This document shows positions 30,797-36,381 of a stretch of 43,664 nt of DNA, piece after piece. This DNA comes from Escherichia phage Fraca: the sequence record LR597645, one strand, 5' to 3'. The position numbers were made by a program, and so were the translations under genes. Each line of letters starts with the position of its first letter. The stretch's first letter is position 1. Below the pieces are notes generated by a model, which was given only the letters and a program-made list of their open reading frames with translations, was not told the origin of the DNA and did not search any database.

Positions 30797-32668
30797 ATGA
30801 CCCCTGCTGAGTTATCTGAAAAATTATGGGACAACGCCGAAAGAGTTGCGAAATACCTGCTTCCACGAGGACACCTCGAGGGCAAGGAGTGGTGCGCTGG
30901 TAATACCAATGGTGATGCCGGTAAGAGCCTGAAAATTAATCTCGGTGGTAAGAAGACTTGGGCAGATTTTGCAAGCGGCGACAGCGGAGACCTGCTTGAT
31001 CTTTGGGTTCTGGTGCGTAACTGCCAGCTGCACGACGCTATGCGGGAAGCGAAAGAGTTCCTTGGGCTGAAGGACGACGATAACCACTTCGAGGCGAAGA
31101 AAAAAACCTTCTCACGTCCAACCAAAAAAGGCGTTAAAAAGGCGAGCCATTGCTACGACTACCTCTCTTCCCGTGGCATCACCCGAGAGACAGCTGATCA
31201 ATTCCGTGTTTCGGACGCAGTCGTCTGGTACCACGATGAAAACCGCGAAATTCCGGCAGTGGCGTTTCCGTATCTTCGCAACGGTGAGCTTTTGCAGGTA
31301 AAGCGAATCGGCACTGAACGACCAAATGGCAAAAAGTTGATCATGGCTGAAGCTGATTGCGAGCCATGTCTGTTTGGCTGGCAGGCTATGGACGCGAAAG
31401 CTCGCGCTGTTGTGCTTTGCGAAGGAGAGATTGACTGTATGACCTACTCGCAATTCGGTATCAGTGCTCTATCGGTACCGTTCGGCGGTGGAAAAGGGGC
31501 CAAACAGCAATGGATCGAATACGAGTATCACAACCTCGACCGATTCGAAGAAATTTGGTTAAGCCTCGATAACGATGATGTAGGGCGCGAAGCCGCAAAA
31601 GAAATTGCTCGTCGTCTAGGGGAGCATCGTTGCCGCCTGGTAGAGCTGCCGCACAAAGATATCAATGAATGCCTGACCTCCGGGATGAGCGAGGATGAAA
31701 TCTGGCACTACTTGGGGACCGCTAAATTCTTTGACCCTGATGAACTCTGCTCTGCGGGTGATCTCCTTCAGGAAACACTGGATGCGTTCGAGCATCGAGA
31801 CGTTGGATTATTTTCCAGCCCGTGGGATTCGCTGAACAGTAATTTCAAATTCCGCGCCGGCGAGCTGACGCTGGTTAACGGAGTAAACGGCCACGGAAAA
31901 ACCGAGCTGGTGGGACATATCGCCGTCAATGCCATGAGCCAGGGAGTCCGGGTATGCATTGCCTCGCTGGAGCTTAAGCCTGGGAAAATGTTGGCTCGTC
32001 TTACCCGGCAAACCATTTGTAGAAAAAACCCAGAACGTACTGAAATCATCATGACTAACGAGTGGTTTTCTGATCGTCTTTGGGTGTTCAAACTCACCGG
32101 AACAGCCAAGGCCGATCGCCTGCTGGAAATATTTGCCTATGCCAGACGCCGCTATGGAATCGATCTTTTCGTTATCGACAACTTGGCAAAATGTGGACTC
32201 GATGAAGAGGACTACGGTGGACAAAAAGAATTTATCGATACCCTCTGCGACTTTAAAAACGAGCACAACTGCCATGTTCTGCTGGTAACGCATGCCAGAA
32301 AAACAAACGAAGCTGCACCAACAGGGAAAATGGATGTTAAAGGCACTGGCGCTTTAACTGACATGCCCGACAACGTTATGGCCGTCTGGCGTAATATCCC
32401 GCGCGAACTGGCGCAGCGCAAAGCTGAAAGAATGGGGTATGAGAGCCTTGATAAGGACGAACAGACTGCTATCCAAATGCCCGCTTCGATGATCCGCCTG
32501 TTGAAACAACGTGAAGGGGAAGGCTGGATCGGAGACATAGGGGCTAACTTTGATTCCCGCTCACACCAGTTTATCGAGGGTGATAAAGGGCCCTTCAATT
32601 ACTTGGCCGGCAAACAGCAAAGTGAACTTGATATTGAGTGGGAAGCCACCAACGCAACGAGGTATTAA
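30797..32668 (+). CDS. DNA primase-helicase (Toprim plus DnaB/RecA-like ATPase)
   Basis: ATG at 30797; Toprim-like VLCEGEIDCMT; Walker A GVNGHGKTE; Walker B-like LFVIDNL. Confidence 0.75.
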   Translation: MTPAELSEKLWDNAERVAKYLLPRGHLEGKEWCAGNTNGDAGKSLKINLGGKKTWADFASGDSGDLLDLWVLVRNCQLHDAMREAKEFLGLKDDDNHFEAKKKTFSRPTKKGVKKASHCYDYLSSRGITRETADQFRVSDAVVWYHDENREIPAVAFPYLRNGELLQVKRIGTERPNGKKLIMAEADCEPCLFGWQAMDAKARAVVLCEGEIDCMTYSQFGISALSVPFGGGKGAKQQWIEYEYHNLDRFEEIWLSLDNDDVGREAAKEIARRLGEHRCRLVELPHKDINECLTSGMSEDEIWHYLGTAKFFDPDELCSAGDLLQETLDAFEHRDVGLFSSPWDSLNSNFKFRAGELTLVNGVNGHGKTELVGHIAVNAMSQGVRVCIASLELKPGKMLARLTRQTICRKNPERTEIIMTNEWFSDRLWVFKLTGTAKADRLLEIFAYARRRYGIDLFVIDNLAKCGLDEEDYGGQKEFIDTLCDFKNEHNCHVLLVTHARKTNEAAPTGKMDVKGTGALTDMPDNVMAVWRNIPRELAQRKAERMGYESLDKDEQTAIQMPASMIRLLKQREGEGWIGDIGANFDSRSHQFIEGDKGPFNYLAGKQQSELDIEWEATNATRY

Positions 32669-32669
32669 A

Positions 32670-32981
32670 ATGGATCGCCTAATTAGAGAAATGTCGTATC
32701 TCTTTACCAAGCAGCGTTTTATGGAGCTTCAGGAAACGGCAAAAGACATCGCAATCGGTCATAGTGATTTTCCTGAGTGTTTCGGTCTTATTGCTGACGC
32801 CATCGCTGAATTTGTTGAAGACACTCCTGATGATGAGTGGCGAGAGCATGAAAAAATCCTTATGCACTACGTTGCTATGCGTGTTCTGACGCTGTGGGGT
32901 AACGGCGATAAAGTGACTGATGTCCAGTGGGCACACCCTGGCTGGTTTGGCACTGCTGAAAAGGGGGAAACCATTCAATGA
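32670..32981 (+). CDS. Hypothetical protein
   Basis: 103 aa; ATG at 32670 two nt after the primase-helicase stop; overlaps the next start. Confidence 0.5.
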   Translation: MDRLIREMSYLFTKQRFMELQETAKDIAIGHSDFPECFGLIADAIAEFVEDTPDDEWREHEKILMHYVAMRVLTLWGNGDKVTDVQWAHPGWFGTAEKGETIQ

Positions 32982-33760
32982 AGTTGGAAGCATCACTAAA
33001 ACACTTTAGCCCTCAGGGTGTGCACATCAGCGACGACGTGAAAGGAACCTCTCCGGATCGTCTCACCGGCACTGATGTAATGGCGGCAATTGGCACCACC
33101 AGCAGCCGTGCGCGCTTCGGACTGGCGGCGTTCTTCGGTAAAGCGGGAATCAGCAAAACGGATGAACAGCTCGCAGTTCAGGCGCTGGCGCGATATGCGA
33201 TGGATGTCGCACCGAAGAATGTTCGCAAAGCAGCTGGTGGGCAGTTCGGATGGTGCATGCAGATGCTGGCACAATTTGCCTTTGCTGATTACTCCCGTTC
33301 AGCGGCTACCAGCGTGACGTGTCACAGCTGCAGTGGTACCGGGTTTATCTTCGGTAATGAGGATGTGGTTAAACATCCTGGTATTTTCGATGCAGACGGT
33401 GCCGAAGTGGTGGCTCCGAAGATAAAAAATGAGCTGGTGAAAAGGGTTTGCGGAACATGCGGAGGAAAGAAAGTGATCCTTGCCCGGTGCAGGTGCGGCG
33501 GTAAAGGCGAAGTGTTGGACCGCAAAGCGACTAAAGACAGCGGCGCACCGGTTTTCAAAACGTGTGAACGTTGCTCTGGTAATGGCTTCTCTGCTATCTC
33601 CTCGGCGACGGTACACCGTGCCATTCTGAAGCGTCTCCCTGACCTCCATCAGTCCTCATGGTCACGCAACTGGAAACCCTTTTATGAAATGCTGGTGGAC
33701 ACTCTGCGCCAGGGGGAGCGTCATGCAGCAGTGGAATTTGAGAAGGCGACAACTTATTAA
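32978..33760 (+). CDS. Putative late antiterminator Q-like protein with DnaJ-type zinc finger repeats
   Basis: 260 aa with four CxxCxGxG motifs; sits between replication genes and the late promoter/lysis region. Confidence 0.5.
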   Translation: MKLEASLKHFSPQGVHISDDVKGTSPDRLTGTDVMAAIGTTSSRARFGLAAFFGKAGISKTDEQLAVQALARYAMDVAPKNVRKAAGGQFGWCMQMLAQFAFADYSRSAATSVTCHSCSGTGFIFGNEDVVKHPGIFDADGAEVVAPKIKNELVKRVCGTCGGKKVILARCRCGGKGEVLDRKATKDSGAPVFKTCERCSGNGFSAISSATVHRAILKRLPDLHQSSWSRNWKPFYEMLVDTLRQGERHAAVEFEKATTY

Positions 33761-33802
33761 TATGATCGGAACAAATGGCGACACTTTTTTGCACGTTAGT
33801 GT

Positions 33803-33840
33803 TGACTTTGCATAAAACTGTCCTGTATGCTTCTGATTAT
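33803..33840 (+). promoter_or_regulatory. Candidate late promoter (PR'-like)
   Basis: TTGACT at 33803-33808, then 17-18 nt spacer and weak -10 (TATGCT); followed about 40 nt later by a terminator. Confidence 0.35.
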
Positions 33841-33876
33841 GGAGTATAGCGCCTGTAGATAATTAACCTCTAAAAG

Positions 33877-33903
33877 CCCGCCACGTTGCGGGTTTTTTTA
33901 TTT
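33877..33903 (+). terminator. Intrinsic terminator (tR'-like) in the late leader
   Basis: CCCGCCACGTTGCGGG hairpin followed by an 11-nt T-rich tract. Confidence 0.7.
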
Positions 33904-34195
33904 CCAGCAAGGTTTTTCTTCATTGCGTTTGTTATGTTGTGTTTTTTAACTGAGGGTCAGTTGATGAGCGCAGATGAAAACTTGTTGAGTAAAATTCAGG
34001 AAGTACGGACGGTAGAGGATGTGGAGCAAGTCAATTTGGGCCTTTCTAAAGGCTGGGTGATTTTGATGATCACCGAGAGCTCTACAGTCTGGGAAGATGG
34101 CAGCAAAAGCAGCCTTGTTACATATCACATGGGCAAGCCGAAGGCATTGCCGGTCTGATCAAGCCTTACCAAATCAAAAATTTCAATCATATATA

Positions 34196-34219
34196 GGCCA
34201 CCTCACGGTGGCCTTTTTT
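34196..34219 (+). terminator. Intrinsic terminator
   Basis: GGCCACCTCACGGTGGCC hairpin followed by a T6 tract. Confidence 0.7.
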
Positions 34220-34436
34220 GTTTCCCCTCGTTCTGAGAGGACTCATGGCAATGATGCATTGACCGTAGGAATGAATTCGGCGTAACTTATTTATGTGGTG
34301 AATTCTTTCTAAGCGAAAGGGCGTTCCAGTCAACTGCTATTTGCAGGTATGCGCGCGTCTTTGCTAACTGGGGCAGAGACACCGGGAGGCACCCGGCACC
34401 ATGACAACAACAATACAATTTTGAAATTCCTTGAGA

Positions 34437-34464
34437 GCCTGCCATAAAACGCAGGCCTTTTTTT
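34437..34464 (+). terminator. Intrinsic terminator
   Basis: GCCTGCCATAAAACGCAGGC hairpin followed by a T7 tract. Confidence 0.6.
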
Positions 34465-34613
34465 ATGGTTTTGTTAACTGCTGCTACGCTTTGAGTTGTG
34501 GGAAGTTCCTGAATGCCCGGTGGTTCTCCTGAACCTGGCGTGAATCAGCCGATACAGCTTCATCCGGGATGCAAGATCAACTCACACCTACCTCACAAAT
34601 AGTCAACTCATTG

Positions 34614-34641
34614 GCCCGCTTCATAAGAGCGGGCTTTTTTT
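34614..34641 (+). terminator. Intrinsic terminator upstream of the holin
   Basis: GCCCGCTTCATAAGAGCGGGC hairpin followed by a T7 tract. Confidence 0.7.
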
Positions 34642-34682
34642 ATTCTTACGCACAACACCCGCACACAGCGAGGTGAGAGACC

Positions 34683-34985
34683 ATGAAAATGAATGATTCA
34701 GGGAACATTTTCACGCAGTTCTTCGCGTGGGTAGCGGCTCTGGCGTCTGCAATCGGATTTACCACTCAGGATCTGGTGTTCATGTTCTTTGGCGCGGCTG
34801 GTCTGCTTTTATCCCTCGCCTCCTACGTGAACGGGCGTGTGGATGCCCGCCGAAAGCGCAGGGAAGACGAAAAGCGCACCCAGATGGTTAATGACTACCT
34901 GAAAGGTGTAGGTGATAAGCCTCTCCATGAACGGCCAGCAGCGGCAAGTGTAGTTGTTGAGGCCTTACAAAAGGAAAGTGAGTAA
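34683..34985 (+). CDS. Holin (class II, pinholin-like)
   Basis: 100 aa with two TM segments and a charged C-terminus; MKM dual-start-like N-terminus; immediately precedes the SAR endolysin. Confidence 0.65.
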   Translation: MKMNDSGNIFTQFFAWVAALASAIGFTTQDLVFMFFGAAGLLLSLASYVNGRVDARRKRREDEKRTQMVNDYLKGVGDKPLHERPAAASVVVEALQKESE

Positions 34986-35521
34986 TGGGAACCAGGGCAA
35001 AGTTAAGCGCGGCAGTTCTGGGGCTCGTCCTCGCTGGAGCTCCGGCTTCAGTTATCCTCGATAAGTTTCTGGATGAGAAGGAGGGCAACAGCCTGACGGC
35101 CTATAAAGATGGCTCCGGGATCTGGACTATTTGTCGTGGTGCCACAATGGTTGACGGTAAGCCAGTTGTGCAGGGCATGAAGTTAACGCAAGCCAAATGC
35201 GACAAGGTTAATGCCATCGAACGGGATAAGGCTCTGGCGTGGGTTGACCGCAATATCAAAGTTCCTCTGACCGAACCGCAGAAAGCCGGAATCGCATCTT
35301 TCTGCCCGTACAACATAGGCCGAGGCAAATGCTTCCCATCGACGTTCTATAAGCGTCTTAATGCAGGCGACCGCAAAGGGGCCTGCGAGGCTATCCGATG
35401 GTGGATAAAAGATGGAGGCCGTGACTGCCGACTGACAAAGGGTCAGAAGAATGGGTGCTACGGGCAGGTTGAACGCCGTGACCAGGAAAGTGCACTTGCC
35501 TGCTGGGAGATAGAAAAGTGA
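34985..35521 (+). CDS. SAR endolysin (lysozyme, GH24-like)
   Basis: 178 aa; N-terminal Gly/Ala-rich weakly hydrophobic signal-anchor segment; lysozyme-like [20 protein letters not shown]. Confidence 0.75.
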
Positions 35522-36063
35522 ATCCGTCTCCGTTAATTGCAGCAATAAAAGCCTGGTGGAAGCCGTTTTTAGTATTGATTGTTGTGGTCGCCGCGTTTAT
35601 CGCTGGCAATGTCTGGAGTAACCGGGCATGGGAAAAAAAGTGGGCAGACCGTGATAGTGCCGAGTCCTCGCAACAAGTCAACGCGCAGACCGCCGCCAGA
35701 ATGATAGAGCAAGGGCGAATTATTGCCCGTGATGAGGCCGTTAAAGATGCTCAAGAGAAAGCAGCTGCCGCGCGTGATGTTTCTGCCCGTTTGGCTGGCA
35801 CTGTTAGTCAGCTGCAGCAACAGGCAAGAAAACTCGCCACCCGCCTGGACGCCGCAAAGCACACCGCAGATCTTGCCGCTGCCGTCAGAGGCAAAACAGC
35901 CGGAGCCAACGCCACAATGCTCGCCGACATGCTCGGAGGTCTTGCAGCAGAAGCTAAATATTATGCTGAACGATCTGACGAAAGCTATCGAGCAGGAATG
36001 ACCTGTCAGCGTATTTATGACTCGGTGAGAGAGTCAAACAACCAATCTGGAGCCTCGCAATAG
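35518..36063 (+). CDS. Rz-like i-spanin
   Basis: 181 aa; N-terminal TM segment then Ala/Gln-rich coiled coil; GTG start overlapping the endolysin stop. Confidence 0.7.
35777..36001 (+). CDS. Rz1-like o-spanin lipoprotein embedded in the +1 frame of Rz
   Basis: ATG at 35777 encodes [14 protein letters not shown] (lipobox) followed by a Pro-rich sequence, wholly inside the Rz gene. Confidence 0.65.
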
Positions 36064-36074
36064 TGGGGCTTTTT
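36052..36074 (+). terminator. Terminator hairpin, copy 1 of a duplicated element
   Basis: GCCTCGCAATAGTGGGGC (7-bp stem with wobble pairs, AAUA loop) followed by T5. Confidence 0.55.
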
Positions 36075-36092
36075 ACTAACCGAGGAAACCAA

Positions 36093-36317
36093 ATGTCCGT
36101 TCGCGCTAAATTCCGCTGCCACTTCATTCAGAAAGCAGAAGACGATTCACACCGCACAATCTACATGAGTCCTGTAACTGCAGATACCACCGAAAACAAG
36201 TCGTGGTCAAAGTATACACCTGGCGGCCAGCTGCAGATGGTCATCTCGAACCCTGCAGCGTTCGAACTCTTCGAGCAAGGCAAAGAATACTTCATCGACA
36301 TACAACCGGCGAAGTAG
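36093..36317 (+). CDS. Hypothetical protein (moron bracketed by duplicated terminators)
   Basis: ATG at 36093 with GAGGAAACC RBS; 74 aa. Confidence 0.5.
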   Translation: MSVRAKFRCHFIQKAEDDSHRTIYMSPVTADTTENKSWSKYTPGGQLQMVISNPAAFELFEQGKEYFIDIQPAK

Positions 36318-36331
36318 TAAAGAAATTTCCA

Positions 36332-36354
36332 GCCTCGCAATAGCGGGGCTTTTT
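36332..36354 (+). terminator. Terminator hairpin, copy 2 of the duplicated element
   Basis: GCCTCGCAATAGCGGGGC followed by T5; near-identical to 36052-36074. Confidence 0.6.
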
Positions 36355-36381
36355 ATTACCAGAAGAAGCAGGAGAAGAAGC

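Follow-up and report, generated by a model that had tools for sequence, protein, structure and literature searches.

The late region of Escherichia phage Fraca (sequence record LR597645) contains an interval of 922 bp (33761-34682) between the gene for a Q antiterminator and the gene for the holin. In this study, we analyzed this interval within the whole 43,664-nucleotide stretch of the record, hereafter called the window. The sequence anatomy, homology, purifying selection on an open reading frame (ORF), covariation in an RNA core, and the modular and mosaic distribution of the parts were read directly from the sequences. A first-pass annotation of the same DNA had described a gap of about 920 bp between a Q-like gene and the lysis genes, and had considered it apparently empty. 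The length and both flanks agreed with our analysis, as the upstream gene is a PF03589 Q matching the structure 7UBM and the downstream genes form a holin-endolysin-Rz cassette. However, the interval was not empty: it holds a conserved gene for a protein of 64 amino acids (aa) and a conserved cassette of about 425 bp.

Anatomy of the interval and its flanking genes

As shown in Table 1, the interval is composed of four modules, designated A to D, each closed by one predicted terminator. The four top terminator-like sites within 32500-36000 were all located in the gap and all on the + strand. A stricter scan of the + strand gave 13 terminator sites in the 43.6-kb window, of which four lie in the gap. 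When the gap was shuffled 1000 times with dinucleotides preserved, the mean was 0.047 sites and the maximum 2, and none of the shuffles reached four. In relatives, the loops differ and the stems carry compatible changes, yet all four hairpins are preserved. The four strong hairpin and T-tract terminators of the first-pass annotation were thus confirmed, and since one closes each module, they are read here as the predicted 3' ends of four successive units.

Table 1. Positions of modules, genes and signals in and around the Q-to-holin interval of the window
Feature	Position	Strand	Description or evidence
Q antiterminator gene, 260 aa	32978-33760	+	lambda-Q homologue; PF03589 (1e-52), phrog_127
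Module A	33761-33905	+	late promoter, ~60-nt leader, terminator 1
Late promoter	-35 TTGACT 33802-33807; 18-nt spacer; -10 TATGCT 33826-33831	+	promoter-like site scan
Candidate sigma-70 pause motif nATnnTGG	33835-33842	+	invariant in relatives
Terminator 1	stem 33872-33897, then T-tract	+	terminator-like site scan; ends module A
Module B	33906-34220	+	64-aa gene, then terminator 2
64-aa protein gene	33964-34158	+	Shine-Dalgarno GAGGG at 33952-33956
Terminator 2	34195-34220; stem 34195-34214	+	terminator-like site scan; GGCCACC-TCAC-GGTGGCC, then T-tract; ends module B
Module C	34221-34465	+	STnc100/PasD-family small RNA (sRNA) gene by sequence, own promoter, terminator 3
Recombination scar	34221-34252	+	TTTCCCCTCGTTCTGAGAGGACTCATGGCAAT; 5' half of the leader preceding holin_8-type genes
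sRNA promoter	-35 TTGACC 34259-34264; 18-nt spacer; -10 TAACTT 34283-34288	+	conservation
sRNA	34293-34464	+	predicted, ~170 nt; Rfam match, fold, covariation
sRNA core	34293-34407	+	closing helix, branched inner helices, invariant hairpin CCGGG-AGGCA-CCCGG
sRNA linker	34408-34436	+	single-stranded; putative seed UUCCUUGAGAG
Terminator 3	stem 34437-34456, T-tract to 34464	+	terminator-like site scan; ends the sRNA
Module D	34466-34645	+	conserved non-coding spacer, C-rich G-poor tract ~34541-34640, terminator 4
Terminator 4	stem 34613-34635, T-tract to 34642	+	terminator-like site scan; ends module D
Lysis cassette	34683-36063	+	phrog_1350, PF00959, PF10721
Holin gene	34683-34985	+	phrog_1350
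Endolysin gene	34985-35521	+	lysozyme-type
Spanin gene	35518-36063	+	Rz-like

Module A has the features of a conserved late promoter resembling lambda pR' together with its terminator. The TTGACT element reported in the first-pass annotation is present and is accompanied by a -10 hexamer, although it starts at 33802 and not at 33803. The promoter matched 9 of the 12 consensus positions. Its -35 hexamer is identical to that of lambda pR', and its spacer (TTGcATAAAAcTG) equals the lambda spacer (TTGaATAAAAtTG) at 11 of 13 positions. The Q-binding element of lambda, which is not annotated in the lambda record, presumably lies within the pR' spacer. The module A block was found in 13 viral contigs and 4 Citrobacter prophages. 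Across 11 aligned relatives, the segment from the end of the Q gene through the -10 hexamer (33765-33834) was nearly invariant; the leader and hairpin varied across the same relatives with the stem pairing preserved. The variants of terminator 1 (GCCCGCC/GCGGGT, CCCTGCC/GGCGGGG, and ACCCGCC/GCGGGT) each form a GC-rich stem followed by T's. Within the candidate pause motif, A33836, T33837, T33840, G33841, and G33842 were invariant, giving a -10-like hexamer and then GG, as in the pause-inducing AACGATGGG of lambda.

This arrangement is similar to pR'-qut-tR' of lambda, which also has a lambda-family Q directly upstream, the same -35 hexamer, a similar spacer, and a terminator shortly downstream. 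Because an intrinsic terminator lies shortly downstream of the late promoter, a short terminated RNA would be expected in the lysogen. At a predicted length of about 60 nt, it would be shorter than lambda 6S RNA (194 nt) and the StxS precursor (258 nt) (PMC7547250). A previous report showed that PR' of Shiga toxin (Stx) phages is constitutively active and that the transcript ended at tR' in lysogens yields the sRNA StxS (PMC7547250). Beyond the promoter, the lambda late region had no sequence similarity to the window.

Module B carries a small ORF that had been placed at 33965-34158 and called marginal. The frame given had six stops, and the actual ORF begins one nucleotide earlier. Sixteen homologues were found, 73-100% identical over the aligned part; 9 of the 16 were full-length at 64 aa, and the named homologues were from Enterobacter hormaechei and Citrobacter freundii. 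Compared to the Citrobacter alleles, the synonymous divergence (dS) was 0.78, the nonsynonymous divergence (dN) 0.117, and dN/dS 0.15. This pattern marks the ORF not as marginal but as a real conserved gene under purifying selection. The first-pass annotation had held that a conserved protein-coding gene filling the region would speak against it; such a gene is present, but it covers only 195 of the 922 bp. AlphaFold2 predicted an alpha-beta-alpha-beta-beta domain with confidence (predicted local distance difference test, pLDDT, 85), and the protein had no Pfam or PHROG match.

The context of the 64-aa gene was also conserved. It followed the PF03589 Q gene by about 200 bp in all four Citrobacter loci, and it likewise followed this Q type in two contigs matching the window. 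Three unrelated lysis cassettes (holin_2; holin_8 with holin_3_7; holin_3_1) were located 3' of it in the Citrobacter loci. The 35 nt 5' of its ATG were identical in the Citrobacter loci and contain the Shine-Dalgarno sequence, without a usable promoter. In the Q-dependent late transcript, the 64-aa gene probably comes first. Terminator 2 was preserved in the Citrobacter loci and in phage SaltyDalty with wobble-compatible stem changes, and module B was absent from SaltyDalty and several contigs. Lambda orf-64 (822-1016 of the lambda sequence used), which also has 64 codons and lies between Q and the holin gene, was considered as a counterpart. It had no similarity to the 64-aa gene, and the likeness was therefore taken as coincidence.

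The Q protein aligned with the lambda Q structures 7UBM and 4MO1 (E 2e-35) over residues 1-122 and 169-245. Compared to lambda Q, which is without this zinc-ribbon insert, it contains about 46 additional cysteine-rich residues (123-168) with extra CxxC pairs; a weak match to the DnaJ-type CXXCXGXG motif was also observed in Q. The lysis cassette was about 85% identical to genes 53-55 of phage N15. The holin begins with Met-Lys-Met (34683-34691), which we take to be the dual-start arrangement that yields holin and antiholin in lambda S. In the lambda record, S and S' are two codons apart and are labelled holin and anti-holin.

The sRNA gene of module C and the conserved spacer of module D

The suggestion of the first-pass annotation that the leader could encode small RNAs was upheld. 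At permissive thresholds, 34266-34468 matched the Rfam family STnc100 (RF02076) over model positions 1-206 of 206 with 46.9 bits (E 1e-8), which is 0.1 bit under the gathering score of 47. Homologues of module C that were 85-92% identical, including that of phage HK639, scored 52.6-79.2 bits and were thus above the gathering score. The window contained no tRNA or transfer-messenger RNA as judged by ARAGORN, and no Rfam match in the window reached the gathering score. The other weak Rfam matches (Trp, Leu, and Phe leaders, RyhB, isrD, AgvB, STnc230, and others; 15-27 bits) all lay on terminator hairpins and far under the cut-offs, and were therefore taken as terminator look-alikes. PasA and PasC, antisense-oriented sRNAs beside holin genes of enteropathogenic Escherichia coli (EPEC), had no similarity to either strand of the interval. 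Terminator 4 had no T-tract on the minus strand.

We then examined the fold and the promoter of the predicted sRNA. Its minimum-free-energy fold (-58.3 kcal/mol, z -2.9) and the RNAalifold consensus both agreed with the STnc100 structure. With a covariance model of the 115-nt core, 126 copies were recovered from 99 sources. In 92 distinct members, 95.5% of the pair cells were standard, compared to 79% in column shuffles and 38-48% with a slid partner, and compensatory changes were present in 26 of the 37 core pairs. Covariation support for the predicted core fold is thus strong, with the qualification that the alignment was fitted to the model and somewhat favours structure; the invariant hairpin was uninformative in this test since it had been the search key. 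The 22-mer of this hairpin, CACCGGGAGGCACCCGGCACCA (34380-34401), was identical in at least 120 viral contigs, and its flanks were often only 20-40% identical to those of the window. In 24 distinct homologues, the TTGAC of the sRNA promoter was invariant and its spacing was fixed except for one 1-nt deletion. The -10 hexamer retained T, A, and the final T in the same homologues, and its inner bases and the spacer varied. This conservation pattern is that of a working promoter.

Several reports describe relatives of this RNA. Eleven STnc100 copies are transcribed in enterohaemorrhagic E. coli EDL933, one of which, STnc100_4, was confirmed by Northern blot (PMC5331693). The E. coli O157 sRNA EcOnc27/sRNA103, which lies downstream of stx2 and binds Hfq, overlaps a predicted STnc100 locus (PMC12711010). 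PasD1 and PasD2 of EPEC E2348/69 showed Hfq-dependent stability on Northern blots and were highly connected in RIL-seq, a method that ligates and sequences interacting RNAs (PMC8550237). STnc100 and PasD were reported to be related, each having a PF03589 Q gene on one side and holin/lysozyme genes on the other (bioRxiv 10.64898/2026.05.13.724894). The window sRNA has in common with STnc100 the closing helix, the branched core, the invariant CACCGGGAGGCACCCGGCACCA hairpin, a single-stranded linker followed by an intrinsic terminator, and the position in the lambdoid late region, with a PF03589 Q gene before it and the lysis genes after it. It differs from STnc100 of Salmonella or E. coli in its Enterobacter host, in the additional module D that its subfamily always has, and in its own linker and seed sequence.

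The likeness to PasD (PMC8550237; bioRxiv 10.64898/2026.05.13.724894) was more limited. The predicted start of the window sRNA at about 34293-34296 (UGUGGUGAAUUC) coincided with the mapped 5' end of PasD2 (GCAUGGUGAAUCC), both conforming to GGUGAAUYC; PasD2 is 172 nt long, its ends having been estimated from the coverage in RNA-seq and the band size on Northern blots (PMC8550237). The length (about 170 nt), the closing helix, the adjoining PF03589 Q gene, and the linker motif UUCCUUG-N-GAG directly before the terminator were also similar. However, blastn of PasD against the window gave only chance matches of 8-11 nt, PasD2 was not found by the covariance model of the core at E <= 0.001, and PasD is without the CCGGG/CCCGG hairpin. 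Because the two have no more in common than the 5' end, the closing helix, and the linker motif, the window sRNA was classed as a relative and not a member of PasD. The linker AAAUUCCUUGAGAGCC was invariant in the subfamily and aligned with the PasD seed region UUCCUUGUGAG, with one base different in the proposed seed (UGAGAG in the window, UGUGAG in PasD). A different target motif is predicted from this one-base difference. By its sequence, module C is a gene of the STnc100/PasD sRNA family.

Cores of this type were also seen in multiple copies. Tandem arrays of 3-5 STnc100-like cores, mostly about 250-260 nt apart with a few larger gaps, were observed in some viral contigs (L027, 1726-3286; L058, 4380-5462; L019, 373-991; L011, 2323-3350; L074, 7208-7579). 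In Enterobacter sichuanensis (L244, 6760-7210), two different STnc100-type genes stand in tandem in one late leader, each with its own TTGAC promoter and terminator and with differing linkers; the holin-leader scar 5' of this tandem still has a Shine-Dalgarno sequence and an ATG.

Module D was located directly 3' of module C in all 28 loci having it. A 15-mer search for D in viral contigs gave mostly chance matches, and these 28 true loci remained after BLAST filtering. Among 50,697 phage records, D was found only in SaltyDalty and HK639, and among 185,579 species-representative genomes, its 3' end was found only in Enterobacter vonholyi and E. sichuanensis. D comes in two sequence types with about 74% identity; the blocks common to both were CTGCTGCTACGC, GGTTCTCCTGAACC, GTGAATCAG, and AATAGTC-ACTCATT, in addition to terminator 4. 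A coding role was rejected as the short ORFs of D (29-35 aa) were broken in homologues by insertions or deletions and loss of the start codon. The homologues of D showed no compensatory pairs, only the terminator and one 5-bp hairpin were predicted, and the fold was no more stable than shuffles (z -0.6). The C/G ratio in the last ~100 nt was 2.1-2.3. Pairing of the C-rich tract with the start regions of the holin gene or the 64-aa gene was no better than shuffles.

As judged from its composition and its linkage to C, our best guess is that module D most likely serves as a second transcription barrier shielding the holin gene from the sRNA promoter. A wider proposal is that D is an undescribed functional partner of STnc100-type sRNA genes, either as a fail-safe barrier or as a second regulatory RNA or sponge. 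We make this proposal tentatively and regard it as rather unlikely. The barrier could then be formed by a Rho-loading C-rich tract with the intrinsic terminator; alternatively, a regulatory RNA or sponge might be released only under Q-driven late transcription. If the proposal is true, such a barrier would permit a constitutive sRNA gene directly 5' of the holin gene without lethal read-through, and under either version C and D would form a mobile RNA cassette of two parts, with D more than junk behind an sRNA gene.

The main alternative to the barrier role is that D itself gives rise to another regulatory RNA, either a sponge or an sRNA derived from a 3' end, that would be released when polymerase reads through terminator 3 or when the Q-dependent late transcript is processed, with the C/A-rich tract as its seed. 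The conserved blocks, the largely unstructured sequence (z -0.6), and the unpaired C/A-rich tract beside a strong terminator are consistent with it, as are two CUCACA motifs, a motif enriched in PasD targets, and the precedent of StxS, in which a leader RNA is processed by RNase E into an sRNA (PMC7547250). Nevertheless, D has neither a promoter nor covariation, the window sRNA carries UGAGAG and not UGUGAG in its linker and would not pair with CUCACA, and the duplex of the C linker with D was no better than shuffles. We therefore consider a second RNA from D unlikely.

We also considered whether C and D together act purely in cis, as a structured leader of the late mRNA that affects how the lysis transcript is processed, how stable it is, or how it is translated, or that modifies the polymerase in the manner of the put RNAs of HK022 and HK639, with the TTGAC...TAnnnT pattern being incidental. 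STnc100-like cores do occur in the late leaders of many phages, and the 22-mer hairpin is unchanged across at least 120 viral contigs; the strict promoter pattern accompanies only 23 of 85 distinct cores, and D lacks its own promoter. However, the critical promoter bases are fixed while the spacer varies, as in working promoters, and a terminator lies directly 3' of the RNA. Relatives are discrete RNAs in uninduced lysogens, as shown by Northern blots for STnc100_4 and PasD and by Hfq binding for EcOnc27 and PasD (PMC5331693, PMC8550237, PMC12711010). A put-like role of module C was rejected because its own promoter would then drive the holin gene and the relatives are discrete terminated RNAs; an antiterminator transcribed constitutively from a promoter of its own would carry transcription into the holin gene, which would be lethal to the lysogen. 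In addition, duplexes of the linker with the start regions of the holin gene or the 64-aa gene, as with module D, were no better than shuffles, and C and D stand before at least three unrelated holin leaders. These points make a purely cis-acting role quite improbable.

A variable cargo slot at the holin leader

The recombination scar at the 5' end of module C aligned with the holin_8-type leaders of HK639, SaltyDalty, and a Citrobacter locus (L237). SaltyDalty has one copy of the holin leader before C and a complete copy after D. Since leader copies flank C and D in this phage, the two modules behave as a cassette inserted into or exchanged at the holin leader. In the window, the downstream leader copy is replaced by the leader of the N15-like lysis cassette. 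The ~425 bp of C and D were conserved before at least three unrelated holin leaders. The same locus was found, identical, in ENA vOTU_06661.

Comparison with phages carrying cargo at this position revealed a variable slot. In relatives with the same late promoter, the content between terminator 1 and C was an HNH endonuclease, TerB with DUF3927 and tRNA-Arg(UCU), a 96-aa membrane protein, or nothing; the slot was empty in SaltyDalty and three further relatives (L175, L083, L140). tRNA genes were located at this position in HK639 and three other relatives (L100, L181, L003); HK639 has one, and in an E. coli prophage C and D are preceded by three. As relatives differ in their cargo or have nothing between terminator 1 and C, the slot is occupied here, against the suggested reading of a recently vacated site. 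That the interval is an empty, insulated leader after loss of cargo such as a toxin or tRNA genes, with the hairpins as its sole functional content, is hardly credible: there is no tRNA or Rfam family at gathering score in the window, and relatives do have tRNAs and larger cargo at this position, but the 64-aa ORF is conserved under purifying selection, C and D are conserved over ~425 bp with C recognisable as an STnc100-family gene, the sole scar is a recombination joint in the holin leader and not a deletion, and the relatives with the shortest interval (SaltyDalty, L175) are without module B, so that the window holds more here, not less, than they do.

The late region of HK639 (HM208537) offers a direct precedent. 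It has four annotated terminators between Q and the lysis genes, and its last two units are homologues of C and D, 82.5% identical. The HK639 copy of C, at 52.6 bits, passes the STnc100 Rfam score, and its D belongs to the second sequence type (~74% identical). HK639 differs from the window in having a different and shorter Q (166 aa), a tRNA in place of the 64-aa gene, and a holin_8-type lysis cassette. The titles and abstract openings of the ten best-ranked of 21 papers naming HK639 made no mention of its late leader.

The cassette can also be compared to the morons. Morons of lambdoid phages are autonomous cargo units with their own promoter and terminator. Module C likewise has its own predicted promoter and terminator, but its cargo is RNA instead of protein. 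C and D are flanked by leader-motif repeats in SaltyDalty, and the slot cargo varies among relatives. The 64-aa gene has terminator 2 without a recognisable promoter, and module B may therefore be simply a late gene.

Two further observations were made downstream of the interval. Near-identical terminator hairpins (AGCCTCGCAATAG[T/C]GGGGCTTTTTA) at 36050-36075 and 36330-36355 bracket a small ORF (36094-36317) just after the spanin gene; with this duplicated terminator on its flanks, it looks like another small cargo unit. The segment 36906-40405 matched glycosyltransferase and glucosyltransferase genes of phages mEp390, FSL SP-016, and ENT39118, which suggests O-antigen-modifying (serotype-converting) cargo.

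Proposed working of the late leader

We consider it likely that a Q-dependent late operon of the lambda type has its leader in this interval, and that the leader has acquired two small cargo units. Transcription starts, termination, Q action, Hfq binding, and the role of D are modelled here on lambda, Stx phages, and the E. coli relatives. In the lysogen, in which Q is not present, the late promoter would start transcription and the polymerase would halt at terminator 1, giving the ~60-nt RNA as a counterpart of lambda 6S RNA and StxS. The sRNA promoter would also start in the lysogen, and its transcript would end at terminator 3, with D and terminator 4 as back-up. By analogy with the relatives in pathogenic E. 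coli, the sRNA made in the lysogen would be a trans-acting regulator of host and prophage mRNAs. After induction, Q would load on polymerase paused just past the late promoter and make it terminator-resistant. A single Q-dependent transcript would then pass the four terminators and reach the lysis genes (holin, endolysin, and spanin), with the 64-aa protein as its first translated product. Together, the four terminators would make lysis strictly dependent on Q.

Several points weigh against parts of this scheme. The -10 hexamer and the candidate pause motif are 3 nt apart here and 6 nt apart in lambda, so that the late start site and the pause position are not settled. The window copy of the sRNA falls just short of the Rfam gathering score, and across the wider family the strict promoter pattern precedes only 23 of the 85 distinct STnc100-like cores; the autonomy of the sRNA may therefore not be universal. 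Neither the scan nor inspection by eye revealed a promoter for module D or in the stretch from terminator 1 to the start codon of the 64-aa gene (33900-33963), and for this reason we only infer how these two are expressed. The ~150 conserved non-terminator bases of D exceed the needs of a backup terminator, and the evidence for its barrier role consists only of composition and linkage to C.

The region is an ordinary, already understood kind of lambdoid late leader, with a precedent in the sRNA-bookended late regions of Stx phages (PMC7547250), and the current understanding of lambdoid late control is unchanged. The STnc100 member just under threshold, the conserved small late protein, and the conserved module D are new here. 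An apparently empty gap of 0.9 kb in an Enterobacter-type lambdoid phage has been resolved into four named units. Pipelines run at the curated Rfam cut-off would leave this STnc100 copy unannotated, while near-identical copies elsewhere are called. The seed one base off that of PasD leads to a target prediction of CUCUCA rather than CUCACA. The interval from tR' to the lysis genes is documented as a modular slot, in which sRNA, tRNA, and small-protein cassettes are swapped at a conserved holin-leader motif. These results indicate that the STnc100/PasD sRNAs, studied mainly in pathogenic E. coli and Salmonella, now extend to phages of Enterobacter and Citrobacter.

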